Source: a virus
Taxonomy: Duplodnaviria > Heunggongvirae > Uroviricota > Caudoviricetes
Direction: 5' to 3' (one strand)
Virus record (IMG/VR): IMGVR_UViG_3300045988_005753
Length of the DNA stretch: 64,000 nucleotides
Position 1 is the stretch's first letter, and each line of letters opens with the position of its first letter. The notes beneath the pieces are model-generated. The model had not been told where the DNA came from. It ran no database searches and was given only the letters and a program-made list of their open reading frames with translations. Below are positions 3,731 to 21,607 of this stretch, piece by piece. Position numbers and translations under genes: made by a program.

Positions 3731-4234
3731 CTATAATTGTAGGTTGCATTCTTTACTTACCTCTTCAAGTTTAACCTCAGAATCCTTAAGTCGTTTCTTA
3801 TGAACCCTGAATCTCATTAGTGAGATGATAATACCAGCTAAAGGAACAGTATACAAGTACCAGATATCATGTAGCTTTGCAGTAATCTGTGTAATGGTCA
3901 AGTCTTGAGCTATGTAGCTGATTGCTGATACGGCTAGCAATGTTGCTAAGAAGAAAACCAGTATCATAACAATATTCAGACAACCTCTGGCGTGGTATTC
4001 ATGCTTAATGCACTTATTCTTCTCTTCAACAACCCTGTTGTAGTCATTTGTAAAGTCTCTGTAGAAAGCTTTCAAGTATTCTTGATTGTAGCCTTCAAAG
4101 CAACCTGTACCATACCAATAATCACCACCAAAATGTGCTATGATACCAGTATCTCCATTTGGTTTGGTTACTCTTAAAGAAGTATGATGACGAGTATCCT
4201 GGTAATCTATCTTATATCTCTCTTCAAAAATCAT
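3731..4234 (-). CDS. membrane protein (one hydrophobic segment)
   Basis: ATG at 4234 overlaps the upstream stop (ATGA) and has a GAGGGG RBS; hydrophobic stretch IVMILVFFLATLLAVSAISYI. Confidence 0.55.
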   Translation of the reverse strand: MIFEERYKIDYQDTRHHTSLRVTKPNGDTGIIAHFGGDYWYGTGCFEGYNQEYLKAFYRDFTNDYNRVVEEKNKCIKHEYHARGCLNIVMILVFFLATLLAVSAISYIAQDLTITQITAKLHDIWYLYTVPLAGIIISLMRFRVHKKRLKDSEVKLEEVSKECNLQL

Positions 4235-5063: not shown

Positions 5064-5645
5064 TCAAGAGTATTTTTTAGGCAGTAATGCACTACGCTTG
5101 TTACTTTCCTCACTCAGTAGTGCGATAAATTCATCACCTTTGCCTTTCCACGGGCTAAATGTAGGGATGTGTTCTCTGATAGCCTCAATCACTGTTTTCA
5201 GGGCATTGTTCTTTAACCACCAATCAGACACTGCCGAAGCTACAATGTAGTAAGCACCATCATCCGTGAAGATTGGCTCAGAGATACATGGTGAAATCAT
5301 AGTGGTAATGATAGAACCATTATTCATGTAGTATGTTCTTTTTTCAACCTTGTCAAGAAGCTTATGAAGGTCTGCAAAGAGACTCACAACCTCTTTATGG
5401 TCAATATCTTTTTCAAGATTTGCTCTGTACTTTAATAGTGCAGCATCAACCTCTTTATCATTGAATTTGAAGTACTGGACTTCTTCATTCACACATACAC
5501 TGATATTGTTGGTGTTTATCGTCAATTTGCACAGTTTGACTGGAGAATTGATGTTAGTCTGAAAAAGTGCTACACAGCCTTCTACATTTCCGAAATGTTT
5601 TACTAATGTAACTTCTGGTTGGATATGCTCATGTTCTTCTGACAT
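5064..5645 (-). CDS. hypothetical protein
   Basis: ORF of 193 aa. Confidence 0.55.
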   Translation of the reverse strand: MSEEHEHIQPEVTLVKHFGNVEGCVALFQTNINSPVKLCKLTINTNNISVCVNEEVQYFKFNDKEVDAALLKYRANLEKDIDHKEVVSLFADLHKLLDKVEKRTYYMNNGSIITTMISPCISEPIFTDDGAYYIVASAVSDWWLKNNALKTVIEAIREHIPTFSPWKGKGDEFIALLSEESNKRSALLPKKYS

Positions 5646-5989
5646 TACAGTTTCCTCATTAAATACTTTTTAAGTTGTGTGTTAGGTTTCTCAAAAACTT
5701 CTATAGAAGATATCTTAACAGACTCACCACGCATACCAGTATGTTTGAATATATAGTACTCCAACATCCCTATGTACTTTGCTGGTAAGTCATACTTGAC
5801 ATACACCGTTACAGAATCTTCAAATTCAACAACCTTTGTGCCATCTTTGTAGTTAAACTCTTTAGGATGGTTGTAGTTGTCAATGTCATACATTAAAAAG
5901 AGTCTTTTACGTTGTAAGTCAAGCTTATTTGTTAAAGACTCTTTAATATCTGAGAAGTTTTTGTACACTGTGACATGGAGCTTGCTCAT
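5645..5989 (-). CDS. hypothetical protein
   Basis: ATG start with a GAGAG-type RBS. Confidence 0.5.
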   Translation of the reverse strand: MSKLHVTVYKNFSDIKESLTNKLDLQRKRLFLMYDIDNYNHPKEFNYKDGTKVVEFEDSVTVYVKYDLPAKYIGMLEYYIFKHTGMRGESVKISSIEVFEKPNTQLKKYLMRKL

Positions 5990-6275
5990 CGTTAAACTCT
6001 CTGACGAAGAAATAGTTGACTTTGTTATTACCTACCATAAGGTCAAAGCAGGTATTTTCAAAAGGTTTGTTGTAGGCATCGTATGAAATATATGGGTCAG
6101 CTACTTGCTTAGTGCTTAACTTCTTACTTGATGGATTTAAGAGGCCACCATACAGCTTCTTGATAGCCTCTTCTACAACAGACCAGATAATTTCGTCAGT
6201 AATTTCTTCGTACAGGTCAAGTTCACGCTCTAGTGAGAAGTCACAAATAGGGAAAACAACCTGTACTTTACTCAT
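5943..6275 (-). CDS. hypothetical protein
   Basis: ORF of 110 aa; its 3' end overlaps the next gene start by 47 nt. Confidence 0.45.
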   Translation of the reverse strand: MSKVQVVFPICDFSLERELDLYEEITDEIIWSVVEEAIKKLYGGLLNPSSKKLSTKQVADPYISYDAYNKPFENTCFDLMVGNNKVNYFFVREFNDEQAPCHSVQKLLRY

Positions 6276-6670
6276 TAACGAATAACCTGTGAGACTTGAA
6301 TTGCTTCAGTTACTGACAAGTCACCTACTTTCTCTTCTTTGATAAAAGTGAAGGTGAGTTCAACAGGTTCTTGCTCTTCTTGCTCAACTGGAATGCCATT
6401 AAGCTCATCGCGGATTGATTGGGTTGTCCAATCCTCCCCACCATCTGGATAATGGATGGCGTAAAGAGGAAACTCTAAATTATGCCAAGCAAAAACAGGA
6501 CAACCGTCTGCATCATCTCGGCATCTGTGGAGGTACGTATTTGTACCTTCAAAATGCAAATGAAGATTGCCATTCTTCTCAAATAGAAGAGCATCTTGCA
6601 GGTCTAGTTCCTCATTTTCGCTGTAACGACTGACATCAACTTTAACGTGGATATGACTGTTATTATTCAT
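6275..6670 (-). CDS. hypothetical protein
   Basis: ORF of 131 aa, tightly packed. Confidence 0.5.
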   Translation of the reverse strand: MNNNSHIHVKVDVSRYSENEELDLQDALLFEKNGNLHLHFEGTNTYLHRCRDDADGCPVFAWHNLEFPLYAIHYPDGGEDWTTQSIRDELNGIPVEQEEQEPVELTFTFIKEEKVGDLSVTEAIQVSQVIR

Positions 6671-7112: not shown

Positions 7113-7577
7113 TTACTTTGGGTATACACTGTCAAGATAAATGTCAGCTTCCATTCTACGTCTGTTTTTCAGTCCGTTTGAAGTGACCTTCTTACCTTTG
7201 ACTGTAACCTTGTTCCACCACTGCATAGCTTCTGCACAACCTCCCTTATTACCAGCGTTGTGGCGCTTGATAAATGTTGAGTCCTGCATAGCTGTGATAC
7301 CGATGTTGTATGTTTCACTTACAAGTGCATCGAACTCATTCTGAGTAGTTGGAACCTTGATAGCTTTGTTCACTGCTGCAACAAACTTCTCAACATCCGC
7401 GAGAAGATACTGTTCAGCTTGTTCAGCAGTAATTTTCATACCCATCTTAACAGTTTTTCCGTCAATACGAATTGTACCATACCCGATTGTTGGGATTCCG
7501 GCAGAGTCTTCGTAAGCCTCTAACTCCAGACCTTCGAAGAACTTAATAGCGTCTAAACCTTTTCTTGAGAGTTGCAT
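7113..7577 (-). CDS. endolysin, phage lysozyme (T4 e / lambda R-like)
   Basis: N-terminal FEGLELEAYEDSAGIPTIGYG matches the catalytic-Glu region of phage lysozymes; 154 aa. Confidence 0.8.
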   Translation of the reverse strand: MQLSRKGLDAIKFFEGLELEAYEDSAGIPTIGYGTIRIDGKTVKMGMKITAEQAEQYLLADVEKFVAAVNKAIKVPTTQNEFDALVSETYNIGITAMQDSTFIKRHNAGNKGGCAEAMQWWNKVTVKGKKVTSNGLKNRRRMEADIYLDSVYPK

Positions 7578-8710
7578 TACGCCTCCCCTGCTGGGTTAAC
7601 TGTAACTGTTGCTGCATTGGATGTTACAGAGCCACCTGCACCAGTAACTACACAGGTGTAGCTTCCTGCATCAGCAGCGGTTGCACCTTCTTTGGTGTAA
7701 GTTGCAGTAGTTGCATCGAGGATGTCTTCCTCACCTTTCTTCCATTGGTAACCTGTCGCACCTGTTGCCACAACATTCAGCGTTAAGGTCTCACCTTCAG
7801 TGATTTCTTGATTGGTTGGCTGTTGAGTGATAACTGGTAAAGCTTTCACAGTAACGGTTGCAGGGCTAGAAGTGACAGAACCACCTGCACCTGTTACAAC
7901 GCAAGTGTATGAACCTGCATCTGCTGGCAGAGCACCAGACTTACTATAGGTTGCATCTGTAGCCGAAGGAATGTCAGAGCCATCTTTCTTCCACTGATAA
8001 CCTGTTGCACCTGTTGCAGTCACTTCCAAGTTGATGTTTCCACCCTCATTGACGGTCTGGCTAGAAGGTTGCTGTGTAATCACAGGCAGTGCGTTGACAG
8101 TAACTGTTGCCGCATCTGAGGTAACGCTTGTCCCAGCCTCTCCAGATACAACACAAGTGTATGAACCGGCATCAGAAGGTTCTACAGACTGTTTTGTGTA
8201 GGTTGCAGATGTGGCGCTAGTGATATCCTCACCATCCTTTTTCCATTGATATCCAGTGGCATTAGTTGCAACAACGCTTAGGGTAAGTGTACCACCTTCA
8301 TTTACTGTTTGATTGGTTGGTTGCTGAGTGATTGATGGTGGCTTGATAGCGTCCTTCAACTTAGCATTCAACATTGAGAATGGTTTAACTCTTGCCAGCC
8401 ATTCACAATAAACTGTATCAACGTCTTTACCATTGATAATTGCATATTGTAAGTCCATGAAGAAGTCAGAAGTTCTCATTTGAGCACCAATGCTGTAAAG
8501 CAACTCATCACTAAATGGAACTTTGTAGTCTGGTTTGTAGTCAAACTCATCGACTTCTGCAATATCAGCTTCAGGCCAATACGAACTGTAGGTAAGCGGT
8601 AAAATAGCCTCTTGATATGTTCTAAAATCATATCTCTTACCAGCCTTTACGTTTGCAATGAAGCCCTTCACAAACTCTTTGAAGTCTGGGTAAGTCTTTG
8701 CTTTAATCAT
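7577..8710 (-). CDS. protein with three tandem Ig-like domains; N-terminal domain paralogous to the 8707-9078 product
   Basis: three repeats of about 90 aa (ITQQP..NEGG..GATGYQWKKDG..DAGSYTCVV..VTV); shared WPE(A/E)DI and FMDLQY motifs with the neighbour. Confidence 0.7.
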   Translation of the reverse strand: MIKAKTYPDFKEFVKGFIANVKAGKRYDFRTYQEAILPLTYSSYWPEADIAEVDEFDYKPDYKVPFSDELLYSIGAQMRTSDFFMDLQYAIINGKDVDTVYCEWLARVKPFSMLNAKLKDAIKPPSITQQPTNQTVNEGGTLTLSVVATNATGYQWKKDGEDITSATSATYTKQSVEPSDAGSYTCVVSGEAGTSVTSDAATVTVNALPVITQQPSSQTVNEGGNINLEVTATGATGYQWKKDGSDIPSATDATYSKSGALPADAGSYTCVVTGAGGSVTSSPATVTVKALPVITQQPTNQEITEGETLTLNVVATGATGYQWKKGEEDILDATTATYTKEGATAADAGSYTCVVTGAGGSVTSNAATVTVNPAGEA

Positions 8711-10335: not shown

Positions 10336-10707
10336 ATGAAAAACAGAACAAACAAAGGCCAGTTTAAAAAAGGCCAGTCTGGAAACCCATCTGGAAGACC
10401 AAAAGGCTCACGTAACAAAAGCTCTCTCGTAAAAGCTCAACTGACCATTGATAATTCTGCTGAGTTTGCTGCAAAGTTGTTTGAAGCAATTGTTACAAGG
10501 GACGCTGCTAAGCTTGCAGAGTTCGGTTTGACGACTGACGATGTAAACCTGAAGTCGATGATGGAGGCTGGTAAAACTATCATGACTCACTCAGCAGGTG
10601 AGATGAAAGCGATTGCAGCAGACACTAAGAAGACCCCTGATAACGGTGGTCAGTCTCAGACAGATAACAAACCAACGTTCTCTGCTGTTGCAACGCTTAA
10701 AAAATAA
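10336..10707 (+). CDS. hypothetical protein with N-terminal GNPSGRPKG motif (possible DNA-binding, terminase-small-subunit-like)
   Basis: ATG with AGAGG RBS; basic glycine-rich N-terminus. Confidence 0.5.
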   Translation: MKNRTNKGQFKKGQSGNPSGRPKGSRNKSSLVKAQLTIDNSAEFAAKLFEAIVTRDAAKLAEFGLTTDDVNLKSMMEAGKTIMTHSAGEMKAIAADTKKTPDNGGQSQTDNKPTFSAVATLKK

Positions 10708-10789
10708 TTTTAAAAGGTGTTGACAGGCTCTATAAAGTTGCTCTAAAGTCTGTCACATCAACTAACAAAATGAGAGAAGAGAGTAAAAT

Positions 10790-12205
10790 ATGAGCGAATT
10801 ATTTAAACATGCGCACCTTCATGCAGGTCGAACTGAAAATGGTGCTGTAAACCATACTTCATCAATGTCTGCTCTTGTAGACTTTTACAAAGCTGCTGGT
10901 TCAAGCCGTAGCAATGTAGAAATCTTACCAGACCTGTTCTACAAAGCTTTGCGTGAGGATGTTGATGTTGCAGTTCGTATTTTACTGCATATGCGAGATG
11001 TACGAGAAGGTATGGGTGAGCGTAAAGCCTTCAGAACTGTTTTGCTTCAAGCGATTGAAGATAAAGTTTTAGAGCCTACGCAGGTTCTTCGCATTATGGA
11101 TAAGATTGCAGAGCTTGGTCGTTTTGATGACTTCAAAATCTTTGTAGGTACTCGTTTCGAGACAGATGCCTTCAAGCATTTAGAAGCAGCATTACTAGAC
11201 CCTGCAACAGCAGGTTTGGCAGCTAAGTGGTTACCACGAGTCAAACCACGTCATAAGCAGTTTGTAAAACGTTTCTGCAAGTTTGCAAACTTGAGTGAGA
11301 AAGAGTACCGCACACTGCTGTCTGCACTATCTGATACAGTTGAACAAAAAATATCTGCTAATGAGTTTGGTAAGATTGACTACAGTAAGATTCCTTCACT
11401 TGCTGCTGCACGTTACCAAAAGCTCTTTAACCGTAAAGATGGAGAACGCTACAAAGCTTACATTGAGTCCTTATCAAAGGGCGAGACTAAGATTAATGCT
11501 GGTGCTGTTTATCCATATGATGTGATTAAATCTATCAAGTATGGTAATGCAGATGTTGCTAATGAGCAGTGGAAAGCACTACCAAACTGGATGGCAGAAG
11601 GTGAAAACATCCTGTGTATGACTGATGTTTCAAGCTCAATGTCTTGGGTGAATCTTGGTTCAATCACTGCCCTTGATATTGGTGTATCCCTTGCCTTGTA
11701 TGTAGCAGAACGCAATACAGGTTGTTTTAAGAATGAGTTAATGGTTTATTCAACAAACCCTCATTTCATCGAACTGAGTGGTGATTTACGAAACCGTCAT
11801 CGTCAGGTAATGCGTCATGTTGAATATGGTTCAACTAACTTACAAGCAGCTTTTGACCGCATTCTTGAAATAGGTAAGAGAAACAACTTGACTCAGGAAG
11901 ATATGCCAAGTAAGCTTATCATCTTCTCTGATATGGAGTTCAATCAGGTTGACGGTGCAAATGGTCATACAAACTTTGAAGCAATTCAGAGTAAGTACAA
12001 AAAAGCTGGATATGAGATGCCACAATTGGTATTCTGGTACTTAGCAAACCGTAATGGTACTTGCGAAGTGTCTGTTAAGGATAACGGTGTAGCAATGGTA
12101 TCTGGTTTCTCTCCAGCCACTTTAAAAGCTCTGCTTGGTGGTGAGAAGTTTGACCCAATCAGCGTAATGCTCAAAGCAGTAATGATTGACCGCTATATCT
12201 GGTAA
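10790..12205 (+). CDS. vWA-domain protein, candidate Ro60/TROVE-like RNA-binding protein
   Basis: 471 aa; helical N-terminal part then a DxSxS MIDAS-type motif (DVSSSMS) typical of vWA folds; sits directly upstream of the tRNA array that contains Y-RNA-like elements. Confidence 0.55.
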   Translation: MSELFKHAHLHAGRTENGAVNHTSSMSALVDFYKAAGSSRSNVEILPDLFYKALREDVDVAVRILLHMRDVREGMGERKAFRTVLLQAIEDKVLEPTQVLRIMDKIAELGRFDDFKIFVGTRFETDAFKHLEAALLDPATAGLAAKWLPRVKPRHKQFVKRFCKFANLSEKEYRTLLSALSDTVEQKISANEFGKIDYSKIPSLAAARYQKLFNRKDGERYKAYIESLSKGETKINAGAVYPYDVIKSIKYGNADVANEQWKALPNWMAEGENILCMTDVSSSMSWVNLGSITALDIGVSLALYVAERNTGCFKNELMVYSTNPHFIELSGDLRNRHRQVMRHVEYGSTNLQAAFDRILEIGKRNNLTQEDMPSKLIIFSDMEFNQVDGANGHTNFEAIQSKYKKAGYEMPQLVFWYLANRNGTCEVSVKDNGVAMVSGFSPATLKALLGGEKFDPISVMLKAVMIDRYIW

Positions 12206-12223
12206 AAAGTTTTAAAAAGGGTA

Positions 12224-12252
12224 TTGACAATGTGTTTAATACCCTTTAATAT
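12224..12252 (+). promoter_or_regulatory. sigma70-type promoter upstream of the tRNA array
   Basis: TTGACA, 17-bp spacer, TAATAT. Confidence 0.55.
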
Positions 12253-12370
12253 GTTCTACATAGAAACGAAATGAGAGCTTTTCTAAGATACTGAAAAATA
12301 TTTTAAAAAAGTTCTTGACAACCACTAAAAAATAATGTTAAAGTAGTTACATAGAGTTTGAAAAGTTTAT

Positions 12371-12447
12371 CTCTGTTTAGCTCAGCTTGGTAGAGCGTTC
12401 CGTTTGGGGCGGTAAGGCCGGAGGTTCAAGTCCTCCAACAGAGACCA
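12371..12447 (+). tRNA. tRNA-Pro (UGG)
   Basis: cloverleaf folded by eye: acceptor CTCTGTT/AACAGAG, T-arm GGAGG-TTCAAGT-CCTCC, encoded CCA. Confidence 0.75.
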
Positions 12448-12454
12448 AATTAAT

Positions 12455-12532
12455 GTTCCAGTAGACAAAATGGTAAAGTCACCACTCTTTCAAAGTGGAT
12501 ATTTGAGGGTTCAAATCCCTTCTGGAACGCCA
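12455..12532 (+). tRNA. tRNA-Glu (UUC)
   Basis: acceptor GTTCCAG/CTGGAAC, anticodon stem CCACT/AGTGG, loop CTTTCAA, CCA. Confidence 0.75.
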
Positions 12533-12537
12533 GTTTT

Positions 12538-12618
12538 GACAGAAGACCAATTACAGCAAACTTAATCTTATTCATCTGAAGGTAAATCGGACAAAGAAGA
12601 GATTTGGTCTGGTCATTA
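12538..12618 (+). ncRNA. stem-bounded structured element A (ACAGAAGACCAATTACAGCAA ... TTGGTCTGG)
   Basis: 5' AGACCAA pairs with 3' TTGGTCT; compensatory changes relative to elements B and C. Confidence 0.4.
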
Positions 12619-12623
12619 AGAAT

Positions 12624-12700
12624 TGCGGGTATAGAGAAAGGGCGTCTCACATGTCTCATTAGCATGGTATCGGCAGGTTCGACTCCTGCACCCGCCTCCA
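12624..12700 (+). tRNA. tRNA-Met-like (CAU), irregular acceptor with a 1:72 mismatch
   Basis: T-arm GCAGG-TTCGACT-CCTGC, anticodon stem CATGT/GCATG, loop CTCATTA, CCA; 5' boundary uncertain. Confidence 0.5.
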
Positions 12701-12705
12701 AATTT

Positions 12706-12776
12706 ACAGAAGACCGTTTACAGCAACATTTATTAAATTTTTAGCGGAAAAATTGAAAGATACGGTCTGGTAATAC
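12706..12776 (+). ncRNA. stem-bounded structured element B (ACAGAAGACCGTTTACAGCAA ... ACGGTCTGG)
   Basis: 5' AGACCGT pairs with 3' ACGGTCT; internal AATTTTT-AGCGG-AAAAATT hairpin. Confidence 0.4.
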
Positions 12777-12783
12777 TAAACAT

Positions 12784-12860
12784 GGTTAGGAAGCACATAA
12801 GGTATGTGCGGTCGCCTGTTAAGCGAATGGCACAGGGTTCGAATCCCTGACTAACCGCCA
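12784..12860 (+). tRNA. tRNA-Asn (GUU)
   Basis: acceptor GGTTAGG/ACTAACC, D-stem GCAC/GTGC, loop CTGTTAA, T-arm CAGGG-TTCGAAT-CCCTG, CCA. Confidence 0.75.
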
Positions 12861-12929
12861 AATTTAGGAGAGAAGCGATTGCTCACCGATTTGTAAGGTG
12901 CAAGTCCTTAGCCTGAATAGAAATTAAAT

Positions 12930-13017
12930 GTGTCGTTATCCCGTAGATGGTAGCGGTGGGGACTGTAAATCCCTTGTCATTGAGACTCGGTAGGTTCGAC
13001 TCCTACACGGCACACCA
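12930..13017 (+). tRNA. tRNA-Tyr (GUA), long variable arm
   Basis: 88 nt; acceptor GTGTCGT/ACGGCAC, loop CTGTAAA, T-arm GTAGG-TTCGACT-CCTAC, CCA. Confidence 0.7.
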
Positions 13018-13022
13018 ATAAA

Positions 13023-13100
13023 GGTTATGTAGTTTAATCTGGTTAAAATACTCCCCTGTCACGGGAGATGATGAGGGTTCAAATCCCTTCGTAACCGCCA
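13023..13100 (+). tRNA. tRNA-Asp (GUC)
   Basis: acceptor GGTTATG/CGTAACC, anticodon stem CTCCC/GGGAG, loop CTGTCAC, CCA. Confidence 0.75.
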
Positions 13101-13124
13101 ATTTTGAGAGGGCTATTTAGCCCC

Positions 13125-13160
13125 TCCCTTAAAGAGTTCTTACGAGTATTCTTTAAAGGA
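13125..13160 (+). other. conserved hairpin (stem CCTTAAAGA/TCTTTAAAGG, loop containing TTCTTACGAG)
   Basis: same hairpin family recurs at 13974-14005 and 16466-16495, each time in a spacer of the tRNA array. Confidence 0.45.
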
Positions 13161-13161
13161 G

Positions 13162-13240
13162 CAGAAGGCCAAATACAGCAAGAATGTATGAAATTTCAAG
13201 CCAATTTAATTTTGAAAATTTAAAACTTGGTCTGGCTCAA
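13162..13240 (+). ncRNA. stem-bounded structured element D (AGAAGGCCAAATACAGCAAG ... TTGGTCTGG)
   Basis: 5' GGCCAA pairs with 3' TTGGTC (one G-U); same ACAGCAA core as A, B and C. Confidence 0.35.
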
Positions 13241-13247
13241 CAAATTT

Positions 13248-13385
13248 ACAGAAGACCGTTTACAGCAAAACTTAAACAATCTATTTCTCCGGTAAAGAAA
13301 AGGCGAAGGTTCGATTCCTTCACTCGGCAGATGTCGAGTTGGTGTAATGGTAGCACTTAAGATGATAAACAACGGTCTGGTAATT
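13248..13385 (+). ncRNA. candidate Y-RNA / YrlA-like tRNA mimic: closing stem around a circularly permuted tRNA-like module
   Basis: order read directly: 5' stem AGACCGTT, T-arm GAAGG-TTCGATT-CCTTC, acceptor 3' strand ACTCGGC, 4-nt loop, acceptor 5' strand GTCGAGT, D-arm GTGT-AATGGTA-GCAC, 3' stem AACGGTCT. Confidence 0.5.
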
Positions 13386-13529
13386 ATCTTTGTAGATAAG
13401 TTATTAAGCTTACCTGTGAGTATGCGACCACAAAGGGTGAATGGGTAAATTCTAGATTTAAACCCAAAAAGGCACATCGCTACAGACCTTAAGCAAGTCT
13501 GGGTAGCTTATCTACAAAGATAATTTAAT

Positions 13530-13605
13530 GGAAGTGTAGCAGAATGGTGATGCGGCAGACTTTTAATCTGACAGGCGATGGGTTCGAATCCCTCCACTTC
13601 TACCA
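13530..13605 (+). tRNA. tRNA-Lys (UUU)
   Basis: acceptor GGAAGTG/CACTTCT, loop CTTTTAA, T-loop TTCGAAT, CCA. Confidence 0.7.
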
Positions 13606-13609
13606 ATAT

Positions 13610-13686
13610 GGTTCAGTCGCAGATAAGGTAATGCAAGGGTCTCATAAGCCCTATGAATGTGGGTTCGATTCCCATCTGAACCTCCA
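13610..13686 (+). tRNA. tRNA-Met or tRNA-Ile2 (CAU)
   Basis: acceptor GGTTCAG/CTGAACC, anticodon stem AGGGT/GCCCT, loop CTCATAA, CCA. Confidence 0.7.
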
Positions 13687-13687
13687 A

Positions 13688-13763
13688 GCTGGTATAGTTA
13701 AGAAGGTTATAACACTCCCCTGATAAGGGAACATCGGTGGTTCGATTCCACCTACCAGTACCA
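13688..13763 (+). tRNA. tRNA-Ile (GAU)
   Basis: acceptor GCTGGTA/TACCAGT, D-stem GTTA/TAAC, loop CTGATAA, T-arm GGTGG-TTCGATT-CCACC, CCA. Confidence 0.7.
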
Positions 13764-13778
13764 ATTTCAATAAAGTTG

Positions 13779-13807
13779 TTGACATTGAGATGTGACTACT
13801 TTATAGT
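13779..13807 (+). promoter_or_regulatory. internal sigma70-type promoter within the tRNA array
   Basis: TTGACA, 17-bp spacer, TATAGT. Confidence 0.5.
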
Positions 13808-13973
13808 AACCTTAGTTTTCGTTGCGTAGCGTCTATTTTGCAAATTTAAAATAAATGCAAACGACAATGTTTTTCTGGCAGTAGCTTGATAGGCTAAACA
13901 CCAGTGAGGTCTTCCAATCCCTCATCAAAGAATTTGGCGTACTCGCCCACGGTATGATTAATAAGGTGGGCAT

Positions 13974-14005
13974 CTTTAAGGACTTTCTAAGAGAGTCTTT
14001 AAAGA
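13974..14005 (+). other. conserved hairpin (stem CTTTAAGGA/TCTTTAAAG, loop CTTTCTAAGAGAG)
   Basis: member of the TTCT(T)A(C/A)GAGAG-loop hairpin family. Confidence 0.45.
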
Positions 14006-14009
14006 TAAT

Positions 14010-14086
14010 GCACCCTTAGTTCAATTGGATAGAGCAACGGTCTTCTAAATCGTTAGTTACAGGTTCGAATCCTGTAGGGTGTACCA
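14010..14086 (+). tRNA. tRNA-Arg (UCU)
   Basis: acceptor GCACCCT/AGGGTGT, anticodon stem ACGGT/ATCGT, loop CTTCTAA, T-arm ACAGG-TTCGAAT-CCTGT, CCA. Confidence 0.75.
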
Positions 14087-14228
14087 AATAGTTAGCAGAT
14101 TACTTAGACTGCCTTAGCGGGTCTTCCTGTAGGGAGGTGGTCTGTATCTCATGTTTTCCAGAACATGTAAATAATCTGAGAAGAAGCTTGACAGTGTTGA
14201 GATAACAGGGTAAGCTTCGAATTATAAT

Positions 14229-14311
14229 ATGGGACGATGTTAAGACTCTAAGGCATGAGCAACGGCCTCCAAAACCGTTTCAAAGGGGTTCAACTCCTCC
14301 GTCCCATGCCA
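14229..14311 (+). tRNA. tRNA-like gene, probably tRNA-Trp (CCA), with an enlarged irregular D-region
   Basis: perfect 7-bp acceptor ATGGGAC/GTCCCAT, T-loop TTCAACT, CCA end, anticodon loop CTCCAAA; 83 nt. Confidence 0.5.
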
Positions 14312-14324
14312 AAGTCTTATTAGG

Positions 14325-14414
14325 GGTAGGTAGCGGCTAATGGCAGCCAAACAGTCTTGAAAACTGTTGCCACTGTAGAGATACGGTGAGGGTTCGACTC
14401 CTTTACTTACCGCC
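14325..14414 (+). tRNA. tRNA-Ser (UGA), long variable arm; CCA apparently not encoded
   Basis: acceptor GGTAGGT/ACTTACC, anticodon stem ACAGT/ACTGT, loop CTTGAAA, T-loop TTCGACT. Confidence 0.65.
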
Positions 14415-14565
14415 TAATAAGATTTACTCCGTCCATGCTTGTTCGCATTGTCGGTTTATCCCTCGTGTATTGTCGTACACTGTCAAAGCACCTAGTAGGT
14501 GTCATGGAGAGAGATAATATCAAGCTCTCCAAAGGTTCTAGTCACCGGATTAAACAAGACTATGC

Positions 14566-14588
14566 AAAGACCTAAATAGGTCTTTTTA
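14566..14588 (+). terminator. rho-independent terminator-like hairpin inside the tRNA array
   Basis: AAGACC-TAAATA-GGTCTT followed by TTTTT. Confidence 0.45.
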
Positions 14589-14591
14589 GAG

Positions 14592-14650
14592 GGCTTCTAA
14601 GGTTATTACAGCTTGTTGTGGAACCTTGTTGCTTAGGTTCTTAGAAGTTC
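14592..14650 (+). other. long hairpin (CTTCTAAGG ... CTTAGAAG)
   Basis: 8-bp inverted repeat around a 40-nt loop; related to the CTAAGG hairpin family. Confidence 0.35.
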
Positions 14651-14666
14651 TCTAAAAAGATTTAAT

Positions 14667-14744
14667 GGGAGATTGACGGTAATTGGTAAACCTACCATCC
14701 TTAGAAGTTGGTGTTTGAGGGTTCGAATCCCTTGTCTCCTACCA
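14667..14744 (+). tRNA. tRNA with anticodon UAG (Leu-type) but a short variable arm
   Basis: acceptor GGGAGAT/GTCTCCT, D-loop AATTGGTAA (Leu-like), anticodon stem CCATC/GTTGG, loop CTTAGAA, A73, CCA; 78 nt. Confidence 0.6.
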
Positions 14745-14751
14745 AATTAAT

Positions 14752-14827
14752 GCAGGTGTAGCAAAATGGTTATGCGGCTGACTCTTAATCAGTAAGACGA
14801 TGGGTTCAATTCCCTCCACCTGTACCA
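14752..14827 (+). tRNA. tRNA-Lys (CUU)
   Basis: acceptor GCAGGTG/CACCTGT, anticodon stem GCTGA/TCAGT, loop CTCTTAA, CCA; close paralog of the Lys(UUU) gene. Confidence 0.7.
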
Positions 14828-14833
14828 AACAAT

Positions 14834-14909
14834 GGGGTCATAGTTTATATGGTTAAAATTCGAGTTTTGCAAACTTGGGAACTGAGTTCAATTCTCAGTG
14901 ACTCCACCA
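14834..14909 (+). tRNA. tRNA-Ala (UGC)
   Basis: acceptor GGGGTCA/TGACTCC, anticodon stem CGAGT/ACTTG, loop TTTGCAA, T-arm CTGAG-TTCAATT-CTCAG, CCA. Confidence 0.75.
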
Positions 14910-14915
14910 ATTAGT

Positions 14916-14990
14916 GCATCCATAGTTTAAACGGGAAAATTACAGTCTTCCAAACTGAGGTTGAGGGTTCGATTCCCTCTGGATGCTCCA
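14916..14990 (+). tRNA. tRNA-Gly (UCC)
   Basis: acceptor GCATCCA/TGGATGC, loop CTTCCAA, T-arm GAGGG-TTCGATT-CCCTC, CCA. Confidence 0.7.
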
Positions 14991-14997
14991 AATTAAT

Positions 14998-15073
14998 GCT
15001 CCTATCGTATAATTGGTTATTACGGTTGCCTTGTAAGCAACTTATCAGGGTTCGAGTCCTTGTGGGAGCACCA
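14998..15073 (+). tRNA. tRNA-Thr (UGU)
   Basis: acceptor GCTCCTA/TGGGAGC, anticodon stem GTTGC/GCAAC, loop CTTGTAA, CCA. Confidence 0.75.
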
Positions 15074-15074
15074 A

Positions 15075-15165
15075 TTCAGAGGTCAAGTGAAAGACCGCTT
15101 TGAGTCAACTGAAGACCGTAACAAATTCCACGGAGTTGAGTTAGCGGCACAACTCCAGACCTCTT
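15075..15165 (+). ncRNA. structured spacer element E (long-range stem CAGAGGTC/GACCTCT, internal hairpin GGAGTTG...CAACTCC, GAAGACCGTAACAA motif)
   Basis: inverted repeats read directly; shares the GAAGACCGT core with elements A-D. Confidence 0.35.
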
Positions 15166-15169
15166 TCAT

Positions 15170-15244
15170 ACTCGCTTAGTTTATATGGTAAAACATCACC
15201 CTTACAAGATGAAGAAAAAGGTTCAAGTCCTTTAGTGAGTACCA
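15170..15244 (+). tRNA. tRNA-Val (UAC)
   Basis: acceptor ACTCGCT/AGTGAGT, D-stem GTTT/AAAC, anticodon stem TCACC/GATGA, loop CTTACAA, CCA. Confidence 0.7.
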
Positions 15245-15245
15245 T

Positions 15246-15323
15246 GTTCCAGTATCCCAATTGGCAGAGGATGCAAGCTCAAACCTTGTATTAGTGACGG
15301 TTCGAATCCGTCTTGGAACACCA
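15246..15323 (+). tRNA. tRNA with anticodon CAA (Leu-type) but a short variable arm
   Basis: acceptor GTTCCAG/TTGGAAC, D-loop AATTGGCAGAG (Leu-like), anticodon stem GCAAG/CTTGT, loop CTCAAAC, A73, CCA. Confidence 0.6.
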
Positions 15324-15328
15324 ATTTT

Positions 15329-15404
15329 GCAGGATTAGTTCAAATGGAAAGAGCAACAGTCTACGAAGCTGTTAATAGGGGTTCGAATCCCTTATCCTGC
15401 GCCA
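15329..15404 (+). tRNA. tRNA-Arg (ACG)
   Basis: acceptor GCAGGAT/ATCCTGC, D-stem GTTC/GAGC, anticodon stem ACAGT/GCTGT, loop CTACGAA, CCA. Confidence 0.75.
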
Positions 15405-15421
15405 GATAAAAAGGTGACACT

Positions 15422-15664
15422 ATGCAAACATTAACAGTAGTTGAACATGAAAACTGTGAGAGTATTGAGTTTGTCAGGGTCATTGGTGTTGAACACCACA
15501 TTTTCTTAAAAGTGGGATACTTATGTGACCCCGCTAGAGTAGAAAGATTTATACGTGATTGTTTTGGTGGTAGACATCTGAAGAGTGTTATTTTTGAGAC
15601 AGTTTTACCAGAAGGTTTAGAAACGAATAATAACATTTACCTCCTTACGAGGATTAGACAATGA
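15422..15664 (+). CDS. hypothetical protein embedded in the tRNA array
   Basis: ATG with AGGTGA RBS; ATGA coupling to the next ORF. Confidence 0.45.
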   Translation: MQTLTVVEHENCESIEFVRVIGVEHHIFLKVGYLCDPARVERFIRDCFGGRHLKSVIFETVLPEGLETNNNIYLLTRIRQ

Positions 15665-16218
15665 GATACTTAAAGTATGCTTCATGGATTTTCTTAGCTT
15701 TGTTAGAGCCATTTGCAGCAATCTTAGCAGTTATCTTAGCACCTTTCGTAGTTCCATTCTACAGTGAGAAGAAAGGACATCTACCTTTCGGGTTCAGATG
15801 GATGGAAACTTATGACAACCCAATTGATGGTGATGAAGGTCACGTTAAAAGATGGGCTAATATTAGATGGATTGGTAAACTAGGTGTCTACATGCAAAGA
15901 GTCGGATGGCTCTGGAGAAACAAAGCTTATAACTTCTCTTACCATGTATTAGGGAGAGATGTAAAAGATGTTACTAAGTGGAAAGGTAATATCAACGTAA
16001 GTTCTGACCCTGAAGATAATCAGACAGGTTATCTCCTAATGTGGAACAGTAATGCTTGGGGATTATTCGCTTTTATCCCATCAATTAAAATCTTTGGTAA
16101 ACAATTTTACTGGAGAATTTATATTGGATGGAAACTAAAAAGTGTTGTCCCAGAAGAAAGAGCATTCTCAAGGGAAAGAGTTATGTTGGCATTCTTTATT
16201 CATCCACTGAGAAAGTAA
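15661..16218 (+). CDS. membrane protein embedded in the tRNA array
   Basis: N-terminal hydrophobic segment WIFLALLEPFAAILAVILAPFVVPF; 185 aa. Confidence 0.5.
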   Translation: MRYLKYASWIFLALLEPFAAILAVILAPFVVPFYSEKKGHLPFGFRWMETYDNPIDGDEGHVKRWANIRWIGKLGVYMQRVGWLWRNKAYNFSYHVLGRDVKDVTKWKGNINVSSDPEDNQTGYLLMWNSNAWGLFAFIPSIKIFGKQFYWRIYIGWKLKSVVPEERAFSRERVMLAFFIHPLRK

Positions 16219-16226
16219 AGATTTAA

Positions 16227-16302
16227 AGGGGATTAGTTTACAAGGTTAAAACCTCGGTCTTTGAAATCGAAGAAGTTGGTTCAATTCCAACATCCCCCGC
16301 CA
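16227..16302 (+). tRNA. tRNA-Gln (UUG)
   Basis: acceptor AGGGGAT/ATCCCCC, anticodon stem TCGGT/ATCGA, loop CTTTGAA, T-arm GTTGG-TTCAATT-CCAAC, CCA. Confidence 0.7.
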
Positions 16303-16304
16303 AT

Positions 16305-16383
16305 GCTCCATTACTCCAATTGGCAGAGAGGCCAGACTTAAAATCTGTGTTATGTATCGGTTCGAATCCGATATGGAGTACCA
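16305..16383 (+). tRNA. tRNA with anticodon UAA (Leu-type) but a short variable arm
   Basis: acceptor GCTCCAT/ATGGAGT, D-loop AATTGGCAGAG (Leu-like), loop CTTAAAA, T-arm ATCGG-TTCGAAT-CCGAT, A73, CCA. Confidence 0.6.
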
Positions 16384-16388
16384 AATTT

Positions 16389-16464
16389 AGCGGTATAGCA
16401 TAACTGGCAATGCAGCAGTCTCTGAAGCTGTCTTATTAAGGTTCAAATCCTTATGCCGCTGCCA
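16389..16464 (+). tRNA. tRNA-Gln (CUG)
   Basis: acceptor AGCGGTA/TGCCGCT, anticodon stem GCAGT/GCTGT, loop CTCTGAA, CCA. Confidence 0.65.
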
Positions 16465-16465
16465 C

Positions 16466-16495
16466 TTCTAAGGATTCTTACGAGAGTCCTTAAAT
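16466..16495 (+). other. conserved hairpin (stem TAAGGA/TCCTTA, loop TTCTTACGAGAG)
   Basis: member of the TTCTTACGAG-loop hairpin family. Confidence 0.45.
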
Positions 16496-16571
16496 GTGGC
16501 CTTATCATAAATGGTAATGACCCATGCTGTGAACATGGTCTATACGGGTTCAAATCCCGTAGGTCACCCCA
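16496..16571 (+). tRNA. tRNA-His (GUG)
   Basis: acceptor GTGGCCT/AGGTCAC, D-stem TCAT/ATGA, anticodon stem CCATG/CATGG, loop CTGTGAA, CCA. Confidence 0.75.
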
Positions 16572-16576
16572 ATTTA

Positions 16577-16653
16577 TAGTCCAAGTAGCTTATATGGTTA
16601 AAGCGCGTGTCTGAAAAACATGAGAAGAGGGTTCAAATCCCACTGGACTACCA
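16577..16653 (+). tRNA. tRNA-Phe (GAA)
   Basis: acceptor TAGTCCA/TGGACTA, anticodon stem CGTGT/ACATG, loop CTGAAAA, T-loop TTCAAAT, CCA; 5' end uncertain by 1 nt. Confidence 0.65.
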
Positions 16654-16669
16654 ATTTCAAAGGTGCTTA

Positions 16670-17404
16670 ATGAAAGAGATGACAGAACAAGGTAAGGAGA
16701 TTTTTAATCTCTTAAAAACTGGTAAAGGGTTTTCTAACCCCCTTATTACTGGTGCAGCAGTTCTCGGTGGAACCGTAGCTGCCTCCACATCACTTGTAAG
16801 CTCTATTAGTTCTGTATCAGACCCTACAGTAAAAGATAAGCTTGTTGCTGCTGGACTTACAACAGTTCTGCTTAACAGCTTTACCACGAGTCTGACAAGC
16901 ACTACATCAACTACCAAAACACTGACAGATTACGGTCAAAAGTCCATTGATGAGTTTTCATCACGTATGCAGGTAGCAAAAGGTTATTCTAATGTTATGG
17001 GTGCAGCAGGTGAACAAGTTGGCTGTACACCATTTAGTGGTATTATGGGTGTTGCTACAGAGTATGGTCAAAAAGCTATTGATACGATTAACAGTGCACT
17101 AGACGGTGTTAATGATGTATTAAGTGATTTACAAGACGCTATTGACAAAGGTCTTGATACTATTTCTGATTTAGCTAACCAAGCTGTTAGTAAGATTAAT
17201 GAAGGTATCTCGAAGATTACAGCTTATGCAGATGAAGTTGTGCAGATGATTGAAGAAGAAGCTGCCCTTATTGCAGAGTACCTTAAAACGAATATCAATG
17301 GGTTCTTAGCAGGTATCTTACCAGACTGGTTTGATGATGCTTGTAAAACTGGTGTAATTGACACTATTGCAACACCAGAAATGAAGAACGCATTACAGAA
17401 ATAA
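16670..17404 (+). CDS. hypothetical Ser/Thr-rich protein
   Basis: track ORF starts inside tRNA-Phe; first ATG downstream of the tRNA (16670) has an AAAGGTG RBS. Confidence 0.5.
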   Translation: MKEMTEQGKEIFNLLKTGKGFSNPLITGAAVLGGTVAASTSLVSSISSVSDPTVKDKLVAAGLTTVLLNSFTTSLTSTTSTTKTLTDYGQKSIDEFSSRMQVAKGYSNVMGAAGEQVGCTPFSGIMGVATEYGQKAIDTINSALDGVNDVLSDLQDAIDKGLDTISDLANQAVSKINEGISKITAYADEVVQMIEEEAALIAEYLKTNINGFLAGILPDWFDDACKTGVIDTIATPEMKNALQK

Positions 17405-17405
17405 T

Positions 17406-17498
17406 GGAAGATTAACCCTAAAAGGTAAGGGAGCAGTTTGCTAAACTGCCAGTAGCTGAGAAATCGGTGTACCAGTTCAAGTCTGGTATCTTCCTCCA
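17406..17498 (+). tRNA. tRNA-Ser (GCU), long variable arm
   Basis: 93 nt; acceptor GGAAGAT/ATCTTCC, anticodon stem GCAGT/ACTGC, loop TTGCTAA, T-arm ACCAG-TTCAAGT-CTGGT, CCA. Confidence 0.7.
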
Positions 17499-17502
17499 AT
17501 TT

Positions 17503-17578
17503 GAATCCGTGACAGAAATGGCTATGTGCCTGTCTGCAAAACAGGTTTATAAGGGTTCGAGTCCCTTCGGATTCTCCA
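17503..17578 (+). tRNA. tRNA-Cys (GCA)
   Basis: acceptor GAATCCG/CGGATTC, anticodon stem CCTGT/ACAGG, loop CTGCAAA, T-arm AAGGG-TTCGAGT-CCCTT, CCA. Confidence 0.75.
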
Positions 17579-21107: not shown

Positions 21108-21607
21108 TGGCTGAAGTTATCTCTATTTCAAATGCTACACGGGTGCATTCGTATAGAGGTGTTCTTATCATCACTGACAAGTTATCTGTAGAGGCTGGCT
21201 CAAGGGTCAGCCTTTCAGGTTATGTAAGTGATGGTGGAGCCTCTGACGTTTTCACTATTTGTAGGTTACTTGATGCACCAATGAGTGGAAAACCGTTTAT
21301 TTCAGGAAATTGTAGTGAAATTGTTAAAATTCCATTTGACAGTTCATGCCTTTTGGGTGTAAAGTTATATAACTGCGAGAATAAACGTATCAATGTTAAT
21401 AGCATTGAAGCCGCTTTCATTACCCTCGACACTGCATTTCAATCTCCAATGACAGTTAATAAAGAAACAAACAGACTTGAATACATTTTTTCACAAAATG
21501 ATTACAAAGTACTTGTCAAAGGCAAAGTATATGATATGATTGTAAATGTGGTAGATGAATCTGGTAACCATTCAACAGTCCTTAAACAAAAAGTAAGGTT
21601 TAATTAA
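21107..21607 (+). CDS. hypothetical head-module protein
   Basis: start overlaps the portal stop (TAATG); 166 aa. Confidence 0.5.
   Translation: MAEVISISNATRVHSYRGVLIITDKLSVEAGSRVSLSGYVSDGGASDVFTICRLLDAPMSGKPFISGNCSEIVKIPFDSSCLLGVKLYNCENKRINVNSIEAAFITLDTAFQSPMTVNKETNRLEYIFSQNDYKVLVKGKVYDMIVNVVDESGNHSTVLKQKVRFN

Follow-up and report, generated by a model that had tools for sequence, protein, structure and literature searches.

The tailed-phage DNA analysed here encodes a Ro60-like protein beside a family of small RNAs that has gone without annotation. The stretch, called the window below, comprises 64,000 nucleotides of IMG/VR record IMGVR_UViG_3300045988_005753 (Caudoviricetes), and its phage is Felix O1-like (Felixounavirus), with 96-97% identity to many Escherichia coli and Salmonella phages. 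One of its open reading frames (ORFs), of 471 amino acids, specifies a protein that by predicted fold belongs to the Ro60 superfamily, and four small RNA elements, E1 to E4, lie in the tRNA array that follows on the same strand (Table 1). The assignment of the protein was already known. What is new is the RNA family, which is widespread, covarying and unannotated, and which is the predicted partner of the protein. Also new are the difference between its putative docking motif and that of the canonical Y RNAs, and the anatomy it has in common with the Class I RNAs of dictyostelids. We consider it fairly probable that the protein, a ring joined to a vWA domain, forms a ribonucleoprotein (RNP) with E1-E4 through a module of the form AAG-helix-UUACAGCAA/CUG, and that it modulates host RNA or nucleic-acid surveillance.

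Small RNAs in the gaps of the tRNA array

In the gaps between the first tRNA genes of the window, the motif CAGAAGRCC occurs four times with GGTCTGG as its 3' counterpart, always on the + strand and within 12540-13383. The four elements have a common core, 5' AAG-[covarying helix]-UUACAGCAA...[helix]-CUG. At the base of each fold is a 4-bp helix, then an AGA/G internal loop and a helix of 7-8 bp, followed on the 5' side by the unpaired UACAGCAA. E1 fills the gap between tRNA-Glu, which ends at 12532, and tRNA-Met, which starts at 12624; E2 fills that between the end of tRNA-Met (12700) and the start of tRNA-Asn (12784). Because they fill these spacers exactly, E1 and E2 would be released by tRNA processing. 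E3 and E4 are positioned 3' of tRNA-Asp. Thermodynamics alone does not set E1-E4 apart, since the z-scores of their folding energies are modest, -1.3 to -2.1.

The first-pass annotation of the window had pointed to a Y-RNA-like tRNA mimic in the array, and E4 is that element. Its arms are those of a tRNA in another order, and it has the canonical features U8, A14, G18G19, A21 and a UUCGAUU T-loop. As read from its sequence, E4 is a circularly permuted tRNA in which the anticodon arm is replaced by a long terminal helix. The RNAalifold consensus is the same as the structure drawn by hand and has three compensatory pairs in the acceptor-like stem, which occurs in Felixounavirus as ACUCGGC/GUCGAGU, ACACG/CGUGU and ACCCUUC/GAAGGGU. 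Among the Felixounaviruses E4 is the best-conserved element, with 100% identity in loci where E1-E3 have 73-96%.

Two further observations concern this part of the array. Hypothetical proteins have been called on the minus strand over E3 and E4, at 13220-13477 (-) in the window, as bas63_0137 and bas63_0138 in phage Bas63, and as BIZ90_gp133 in the RefSeq entry of Alf5; these ORF calls are probably spurious. In the Felixounavirus isolate L009 the T-arm of E4 joins directly onto the 3' end of tRNA-Lys and the spacer between them is deleted, which is consistent with T-arm/T-arm recombination.

The RNA family in distant phages

Eighty loci with relatives of the protein were scanned within 6 kb either side of the gene; 15 are Felixounavirus-like and 65 are distant (39-47% protein identity, many from phages of 100-380 kb). 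Two covariance models were used, R1 built from eight Felixounavirus E4 sequences only and R2 from 17 matches. R1 placed 65 of its 68 matches on the strand of the gene, and full-length same-strand matches stand beside the gene in the distant loci L079, L019, L071, L038 and L028. The match in L079 scores 58.6 bits and lies 140 nt downstream of the gene, and at the L019 locus there are at least four copies and no canonical tRNA. R2 gave 88 matches at E<=1, every one of them on the strand of the gene, and 20 of the 65 distant loci (18 non-redundant) have one at E<0.01, the E-values of both models being rough after a shortened calibration. The 18 non-redundant loci hold 26 R2 matches, of which 12 lie within 250 nt of the gene (an even spread would put about one there) and 21 within 1 kb. 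The first-pass annotation had proposed a check of co-occurrence in related phages; that of gene and tRNAs is universal in Felixounavirus and partial elsewhere, with a tRNA within 6 kb in 21 of the 65 distant loci and within 650 nt in 11. It is the gene that the RNA family accompanies, not the tRNAs, across phages of Proteobacteria, Actinobacteria and Firmicutes.

The helices of the family covary. In an alignment of 30 sequences, which was fitted to the model, 88% of the cells at paired positions are paired, against 60% after shuffling and 31-44% with slid partners, and the covariation score is 0.476, against 0.14 and less than 0.1 respectively. Double changes occur in 29 of 32 pairs, and none of 500 shuffles attained any of the observed covariation measures. 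The conserved core of these sequences is aAG-[helix]-uUaCAGCAA ... [helix]-uCUG, and its G-C closing pair is present in 29 of the 30. About half of the copies with a tRNA module in distant phages have NCCA directly 3' of the acceptor 3' strand, which E4 of the window does not. When copies, E4 among them, were un-permuted, ARAGORN called a tRNA in 10 of 12 constructs, that of E4 included; this test is contrived and supportive only, with an anticodon loop and an ACCA tail supplied and many cut points scanned.

Individual phages illustrate the range of arrangements. Mycobacterium phage Crossroads, whose protein is 33% identical, has a full-length element (48 bits) 97 nt downstream of the gene with UACAGCAA exactly conserved. 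In Aeromonas phage LAh_9 about eight short copies are grouped at the 5' end of the gene; in Staphylococcus phage 6ec two copies closely follow the gene, and the match in Campylobacter CPX is ambiguous. Vibrio phage KVP40 (L083, NC_005083) has no element within 6 kb of the gene; seven full-length matches do occur in its tRNA cluster, on the strand of the gene and at a distance of 6-13 kb, and one of them exactly spans the gap between tRNA-Thr and tRNA-Gln. Protein-coding neighbours are not conserved: none recurs in more than 16 of the 65 distant loci, and this holds for RNA ligase, RtcB and polynucleotide kinase (PNK) too.

Some details of existing annotation touch on these elements. The features 'tRNA-Pseudo-3/4/5' of KVP40 (113-124 nt) overlap model matches (19243-19379 and 21039-21169, minus strand). 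In LAh_9 (L090) the annotated start of the Ro-like coding sequence (3866) overlaps two RNA elements (3843-3963); homology to the window protein begins at about 4001, and the annotated start is therefore probably mis-set. An SPFH/band-7 gene stands directly 3' of this Ro-like gene, with a gene for RNA ligase 2 about 3.7 kb beyond; the stretches noted in this genome are 3843-3963, 5522-6430 and 9070 onwards. A phage transfer-messenger RNA (Rfam, 87 bits) is encoded at L078:9710-10201 (+), about 2.3 kb downstream of the Ro60-like gene of a 250-kb phage contig.

The Ro60-like protein

The ORF had been described in the first-pass annotation as having a helical N-terminus, a DVSSSMS motif and a C-terminal region of the size of a vWA domain, and each of these is present. 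An AlphaFold2 model made from an alignment of 93 sequences (mean predicted local distance difference test score 91.8, predicted template modelling (TM) score 0.90) is helical to about residue 265 and then alternates between beta strands and helices. In a Foldseek comparison of this model with the PDB the best 12 matches are all Ro60/TROVE chains, matched over the full length (E 7e-9 to 3e-7, TM 0.54-0.66), and isolated vWA domains appear only from E>1e-3, with TM about 0.2. The predicted model has the Ro60-type architecture, a helical-repeat ring followed by a vWA domain. Residues D279, S281, S283, T349 and D381 are invariant in the 93-sequence alignment and make up a complete DxSxS...T...D metal-ion-dependent adhesion site (MIDAS), in the same register as in Ro60.

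In sequence the protein belongs to a phage family of its own. DUF7788 (PF25043) matches residues 275-455 with E 3e-44 (151 bits, cutoff 27.1), DUF2828 (PF11443) matches with E 4.5e-29 (102 bits, cutoff 29), and PHROG 850 ('RNA-binding protein') matches the full length, residues 1-471, with E 2.5e-183. Among the profiles named for checking in the first-pass annotation, DUF2828 was thus found above its cutoff, VWA_2 remained below threshold (VWA_2 and VWA_CoxE are both weak), and TROVE (PF05731) gave no Pfam HMM (hidden Markov model) match at E<=1. PF05731 is also missing among the 25 Pfam families listed for 93 family members. The vWA_Ro60 profile (PF25045) matches 20 of these 93 weakly, with a best E of 1.7e-4, and does not match the window protein itself. 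NCBIfam gave nothing for the protein, and neither did a search of PDB sequences with the single sequence as query; a profile search of the PDB gave non-significant matches only, though these were enriched in Ro60. Against a vertebrate Ro60 profile, aligned from database proteins that carry TROVE and vWA_Ro60, hhalign reported E 8.3e-5 and a probability of 61% over residues 240-445 only, a span that takes in the last HEAT helix and all of the vWA domain and that aligns the MIDAS residues in register. The link to Ro60 at the level of sequence is marginal. The Ro60 assignment of the first-pass annotation, published before for Bas63 gp130, therefore stands by fold and fails by the TROVE HMM: on the predicted model the protein is of the Ro60 superfamily, while by sequence it is DUF2828/DUF7788 and outside the TROVE family.

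The family is large. A word-indexed search returned more than 2,500 homologues and an exhaustive profile search 9,003 clusters (50% identity) at E<=1e-3, so the 471-aa frame is no chance ORF. The exhaustive search was meant to reach TROVE; its best 150 matches are all close relatives with no TROVE bridge among them, and it informs on family size only. DUF2828-type genes are present in at least 710 phage genome records, several of them already annotated as 'Ro-like RNA binding protein', and the hosts include Escherichia, Salmonella, Vibrio, Aeromonas, Campylobacter, Mycobacterium, Listeria, Staphylococcus, Enterococcus and Bacillus.

Comparison with canonical Ro60 and YrlA

The bacterial YrlA RNAs are defined by a V, T, acceptor stem and D order inside a terminal stem (Chen et al. 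2014). The long terminal stem of E4 likewise encloses a V hairpin, a T-arm, a closed acceptor-like stem and a D-arm, with covariation in every helix, and Ro60/YrlA loci resemble this one in having one RNA per locus with a permuted tRNA-like domain. The protein resembles Ro60/Rsr in its predicted ring plus vWA/MIDAS fold and in the position of its gene beside same-strand small RNAs. Canonical phage Ro60 genes also lie in tRNA-rich regions and adjoin YrlA RNAs. Ro60 itself takes up Y RNA at its outer surface and the ends of misfolded RNAs within its central cavity.

The differences lie in sequence. The window family is DUF2828/DUF7788, as against TROVE/vWA_Ro60, with 11-16% identity, and E4 is encoded beside a Ro60-fold DUF2828 gene, not a TROVE-type gene. 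YrlA and the Yrl RNAs of phage phiLo carry the motif GNCGAA(N)G / CGAA; the phage elements described here have AAG-helix-UUACAGCAA...CUG instead. The YrlA motif GNCGAA(N0-1)G, the putative Rsr site, is absent from the window, which has ACAGAAG (CAGAAG, not CGAAG), and distant members keep only AAG. The Rfam YrlA model (RF02553) has no match on 12500-13540 or 12533-13400 at E<=10, and there is no Y_RNA match on the window at E<=10. E4 is YrlA-like in architecture and outside the Rfam family. In phages Bxz1 and Beuffert RF02553 does match the elements beside the canonical Ro60 genes of TROVE type, at 32-34 bits (below the gathering score of 69), and R2 also detects these actinophage YrlA RNAs, through the tRNA-like module only. 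The two protein types differ in host range as well: the TROVE type is in 357 phage records, almost all of actinophages, and the DUF2828 type in 710, with Gram-negative and Gram-positive hosts. Tethering to PNPase is a feature of Rsr and of the Ro60 of phiLo, a Thermus phage with Yrl1 and Yrl2. Contacts with PNPase, RNase P or the CCA-adding enzyme of the host are on record for Rsr, for the phiLo Ro60 and for the YrlA of M. smegmatis.

In Streptomyces phage Beuffert (L085) a second full-length YrlA-like element (48.7 bits with R2) lies at 1629-1751 (+), about 1.2 kb upstream of the canonical Ro-like gene; the Rfam YrlA model is silent on it at E<=0.1.

Comparison with the Class I RNAs of dictyostelids

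The Rfam family closest to the short elements is Dicty_Class_I_RNA (RF01414), with the consensus GaUcuC-CUUACAGCAA-...-GagAuC-UG. Class I RNAs are defined by an AAG start, a CUGU end, a short covarying terminal stem in which a constant G pairs with the C of CUGU, and next to this stem an 11-nt unstructured motif that does not vary at T3, C6, C9, A10 and A11; they are about 60 nt long and low in G+C, and their genes are clustered (Kjellin et al. 2021, PMC7919456). They have been reported as unique to Dictyostelia and of unresolved function, and Rnp1A/CIBP, an RRM protein, is the only one named of four proteins that associate with them (PMC7919456); the other three are DdR-21-associated proteins of Avesson et al. 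2011. The phage family consensus, which was derived independently of that definition and in which the ends are predicted, has the same anatomy: an AAG start, a CUG(U) end, a covarying terminal helix with double changes in all its pairs, the near-invariant G-C noted above, and an unpaired (CC)UUACAGCAA, in elements of about 55-80 nt that are low in G+C and form tandem clusters. Unlike Class I RNAs, the phage elements have an extra outer 4-bp helix and an internal loop, and some carry a tRNA-like insert that is undescribed for Class I. They also lack the other marks of Class I, a DUSE (Dictyostelium upstream sequence element) promoter about 60 nt upstream and a dictyostelid origin, and instead occur in phages, with sigma-70-like sites and embedded in tRNA operons.

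RF01414 aligns end-to-end to seven tandem LAh_9 elements with 18.4-29.6 bits (E 0.0034-2.3, corrected for all families) and in the window to E1 with 19.7 bits (E 0.77, end-to-end) and to E2 with 17.1 bits. No phage match reaches the gathering score of 41.5, the best being 29.6 bits at E 0.0034. An Rfam scan of five loci as one 60-kb input gave no Class I match, and is uninformative since the filters are stricter for large inputs.

Proteins with the same fold and the same Pfam families, DUF2828/DUF7788, are encoded by giant viruses (Pithovirus, Mimiviridae, Marseillevirus, CroV and Bodo saltans virus), and that of Pithovirus LCPAC304 compares with the window protein at TM 0.88 and 28% identity. 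They differ in coming from eukaryotic viruses of protists and, in several cases, in being longer, at about 760 aa. Mimivirus-like DUF2828 proteins have been noted in the literature; the literature searched gave nothing on DUF2828/PF11443 beyond this, nor on Class I RNA-binding proteins beyond Rnp1A. Could the DUF2828 Ro60-like proteins and the 'AAG-helix-UUACAGCAA...CUG' RNAs represent one ancient RNP of giant viruses, of dictyostelids and of tailed phages from many bacterial phyla? Class I RNAs would then be the Y-RNA equivalents of a DUF2828 protein, and the phage particle, sometimes fused to a permuted tRNA with encoded CCA, would be an anti-defence device. We offer this tentatively, as possible rather than probable.

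The orthologue in phage Bas63 and the Ppl defence

The window protein is 98% identical (461/471) to bas63_0130 of Bas63 (Escherichia phage JohannRWettstein), and the synteny is identical. This protein, gp130, has been described in the PhageMaP preprint as structurally similar to Ro60 (10.1101/2024.10.10.617714). According to the same work, Ppl is a defence gene with an ATPase and a PHP domain, and Bas63 without gp130 is crippled on a host with Ppl and is rescued by complementation. No description of the mechanism of Ppl was found in the literature searched. Its supplementary tables, which list no values for genes 131-133, give the loss of gene 130 (the DUF2828 protein) fitness values of -2.9, -3.3 and -3.7 with Ppl in the host; for the remaining hosts shown the range is +0.6 to +1.1. 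By orthology with gp130, the window protein would also have an anti-Ppl role.

The PhageMaP authors speculated that some of the downstream 'tRNA genes' might be Y RNAs (10.1101/2024.10.10.617714). Their candidates are annotated tRNAs of this sister phage; the elements themselves are not annotated as tRNAs in Bas63 and lie in the gaps between tRNAs, with E4 under the minus-strand ORF bas63_0137.

Gene 129 of Bas63, the DUF5681 ORF upstream of gene 130, scores -2.4 to -2.5 on the Ppl host and -0.9 to -3.5 on the others; its loss is harmful on every Bas63 host shown, not specifically with Ppl. A polar effect on gene 130 cannot explain this phenotype, since on the hosts other than the Ppl host losing gene 130 is neutral. 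DUF5681 was rejected as a partner of the RNAs, being confined to Felixounavirus loci. The suggestion in the first-pass annotation that the locus serves escape from host anticodon nucleases found no support and was set aside together with any link to RNA repair; Bas63 has an annotated PNK and a phosphatase, and no annotated RNA ligase.

A proposed RNP and its alternatives

In the RNP that we propose, the enzymes that cut the flanking tRNAs would probably release E1-E4. Their common module, with a helix of fixed length, an invariant G-C closure between 5' AAG and CUG 3' and the unpaired UUACAGCAA, would be the docking site for the Ro60-like protein and would play the part that the conserved Y RNA stem plays for Ro60. 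Through its permuted tRNA-like domain E4 might bring host factors or nucleases that recognise tRNAs to the particle, or else keep them away from it. The particle most likely would modulate host RNA or nucleic-acid surveillance in infection, to judge by analogy from Rsr-YrlA-PNPase and the phiLo Ro60-Yrl-PNPase. The only demonstrated output is the neutralisation of Ppl, by the 98%-identical orthologue.

Several results weigh against such a particle. On a plasmid or inserted in T7, gp130 alone restores T7 plaquing on the Ppl host (10.1101/2024.10.10.617714), and for this, the only known phenotype, the RNAs look dispensable. Disruption of gene 137, the minus-strand ORF call over E4, is neutral on the Ppl host (+0.55 to +0.73) and on the other hosts shown, where the values are positive. 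Isolate L009 is without the 3' half of E4 (L009:8447-8610), and about two thirds of the distant loci have no detectable element within 6 kb either side of the gene. The absent matches to TROVE and to the Rfam YrlA model, the rough E-values and the fitting of the covariation alignment to its model count on the same side, and that E1-E4 are stable expressed RNAs to which the protein binds is something that we infer. The anti-Ppl activity of gp130 appears to be independent of phage RNAs, at least of E4. Is it then a function of the protein only, perhaps through its MIDAS face? Or do host RNAs, or redundant E1-E3, substitute? E1-E3 could be redundant for docking.

If the protein acted alone, it would be a direct protein-protein inhibitor or a decoy of Ppl, for example through its vWA/MIDAS face, and the RNA elements would be processing or spacer elements of the tRNA operon, or decayed tRNA genes. 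The rescue by gp130 of T7 without the tRNA array, the neutral disruption over E4 and the L009 isolate all fit this, and vWA/MIDAS domains are classic protein-interaction modules, with Midasin-UBL and Ku complexes among the fold matches. It is rather unlikely in our judgement, because the RNA family stands on the same strand beside the gene across phages of three bacterial phyla and even in L019, where there is no tRNA; because the unpaired UUACAGCAA and the closing G-C stay constant beside a covarying helix, a pattern typical of sites that bind protein; and because canonical Ro60 proteins bind RNA and adjoin Y RNAs. An anti-Ppl activity of the protein only is, moreover, compatible with an RNP function.

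The elements might also be cis-acting parts of the transcript of the gene or operon, that is, autoregulatory operators, stabilisers or attenuators, and not trans-acting Y-like RNAs. Many copies lie on the same strand in a likely 5' or 3' untranslated region (at -12, -14 and -53 nt, or at +34 to +218 nt), and the copies of LAh_9 are stacked just upstream of the coding region, overlapping the annotated start. Against this, the elements of the window are 330-1,180 nt downstream of the stop codon, beyond two promoter-like sites and several tRNAs, and those of KVP40 are 6-13 kb off, within the tRNA cluster. Many have the full tRNA-like domain, about half of these in distant phages with NCCA, which suggests RNase P and 3'-end processing to stable RNAs; and bacterial Y RNAs, too, are established to be co-transcripts of rsr that are later processed (Chen et al. 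2014). We hold a role in cis to be a little less likely again than a protein that acts alone. That the protein is a generic vWA/MIDAS protein of the BatA/CoxE/MoxR-partner type with a superficial resemblance to Ro60 would account for the missing TROVE match, for the weakness of VWA_2 and VWA_CoxE and for an hhalign similarity limited to the vWA region; it is very improbable beside the full-length Ro60 matches of the predicted fold.

The proposed RNP matters since a protein family found in at least 710 phages and about 9,000 clusters is accompanied by an RNA family that is nevertheless unannotated, its members overlooked in the databases, listed as 'pseudo-tRNAs' (KVP40) or hidden under spurious hypothetical ORFs (Bas63, Alf5). 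The RNAs offer a handle on how phage Ro60-like proteins work and on how gp130 defeats Ppl. Their differing docking motif would be a natural experiment in protein-RNA co-evolution within the Ro60 superfamily, and the signature in common with the Class I RNAs points to a candidate partner protein for the latter and hints at how they originated.

The locus and its neighbourhood

The gene was said in the first-pass annotation to lie directly upstream of a tRNA array, and the array, all on the + strand, does begin 166 nt past its stop codon. A purine-rich, Shine-Dalgarno-like stretch, AGAGAAGAGAG, is found 5-15 nt 5' of the ATG. The intergenic region before the first tRNA may be the start of a tRNA/small-RNA transcription unit, to judge from its promoter-like sites (Table 1); the total count of such sites in the region, from a consensus scan, is no higher than in shuffled sequence.

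Table 1. Features of the Ro60-like gene, the small RNAs and the flanking array in the window
Feature	Position	Strand	Basis
Promoter-like site TTGACA-18-TAAAGT, 41 nt 5' of the 471-aa ORF	10720..10749	+	Consensus scan, 10/12 match; weak
ORF, 471 aa, ATG start; predicted Ro60-fold DUF2828/DUF7788 protein, Bas63 gp130 orthologue	10790..12205	+	ORF list, Pfam, PHROG 850, synteny, AlphaFold2
N-terminal all-helical region, residues 1 to ~265, predicted counterpart of Ro60 HEAT-repeat ring (TROVE)	10790..11584	+
vWA domain (DUF7788, residues 275-455)	11612..12154	+	PF25043 E 3e-44; hhalign to Ro60 vWA E 8.3e-5
MIDAS DxSxS, DVSSSMS, residues 279-285 (D279-V-S281-S-S283-M-S)	11624..11644	+	Alignment of 93 homologues
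MIDAS completion, T349 and D381	11834-11836 and 11930-11932	+	Alignment of 93 homologues
Intergenic region, 12-bp stem-loop and two promoter-like sites, before first tRNA	12216..12344	+	Consensus scan, sequence
Promoter-like site TTGACA-17-TAATAT	12224-12252	+	Consensus scan
Promoter-like site TTGACA-18-TAAAGT with TG	12315-12344	+	Consensus scan
Array of 26 tRNA genes with embedded small RNAs	12371..17578	+	ARAGORN; Rfam tRNA matches
E1, short Y-like / Class I-like RNA	12536..12616	+	R2 44.5 bits; fold with 4-bp helix, AGA/G loop, 7-bp helix
E2, short Y-like / Class I-like RNA	12703..12774	+	R2 47.7 bits; fold
E3, short Y-like RNA, diverged copy GAAGGCC...AUACAGCAA...GGUCUGG	13158..13239	+	R2 31.2 bits; fold
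E4, YrlA-like RNA	13245..13384	+	Minimum free energy fold; RNAalifold; R1 165 bits, R2 122 bits; family covariation
E4 outer helices	13246-13249/13380-13383 and 13253-13260/13371-13378	+
E4 motif UACAGCAA	13261-13268	+
E4 V hairpin (variable-arm position)	13284-13300	+
E4 T-arm, GAAGG-UUCGAUU-CCUUC	13305-13321	+
E4 closed 7-bp acceptor-like stem, loop AGAU	13322-13328/13333-13339	+
E4 U8 (then N9)	13340	+
E4 D-arm, GUGU-AAUGGUA-GCAC	13342-13356	+

With a match of 11/12, TTGACA-17-TATAGT at 13779-13807 (+) is the best sigma-70-like site of the region; it falls within the array, between the genes for tRNA-Ile and tRNA-Arg, and suggests internal promoters. Also in the array, at 14229-14312 (+), is a tRNA-like cloverleaf that ARAGORN did not call, with UGCCA at its 3' end, a T-arm, an acceptor stem of 8 bp and, at the anticodon position, a loop of 9 nt (CCUCCAAAA); Rfam gives it only 23 bits to tRNA-Sec, and it is unannotated in Bas63. 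Directly 5' of the Ro60-like gene is the 123-aa DUF5681 ORF, at 10336-10707 (+). Further away, the protein of 377 aa encoded at 7577-8710 (-) contains an Ig-like repeat three times in tandem ('PxITQQPxxQxVxEG...GYQWKK...AGSYTC'); its relatives are annotated as immunoglobulin-like domain protein or tail protein.

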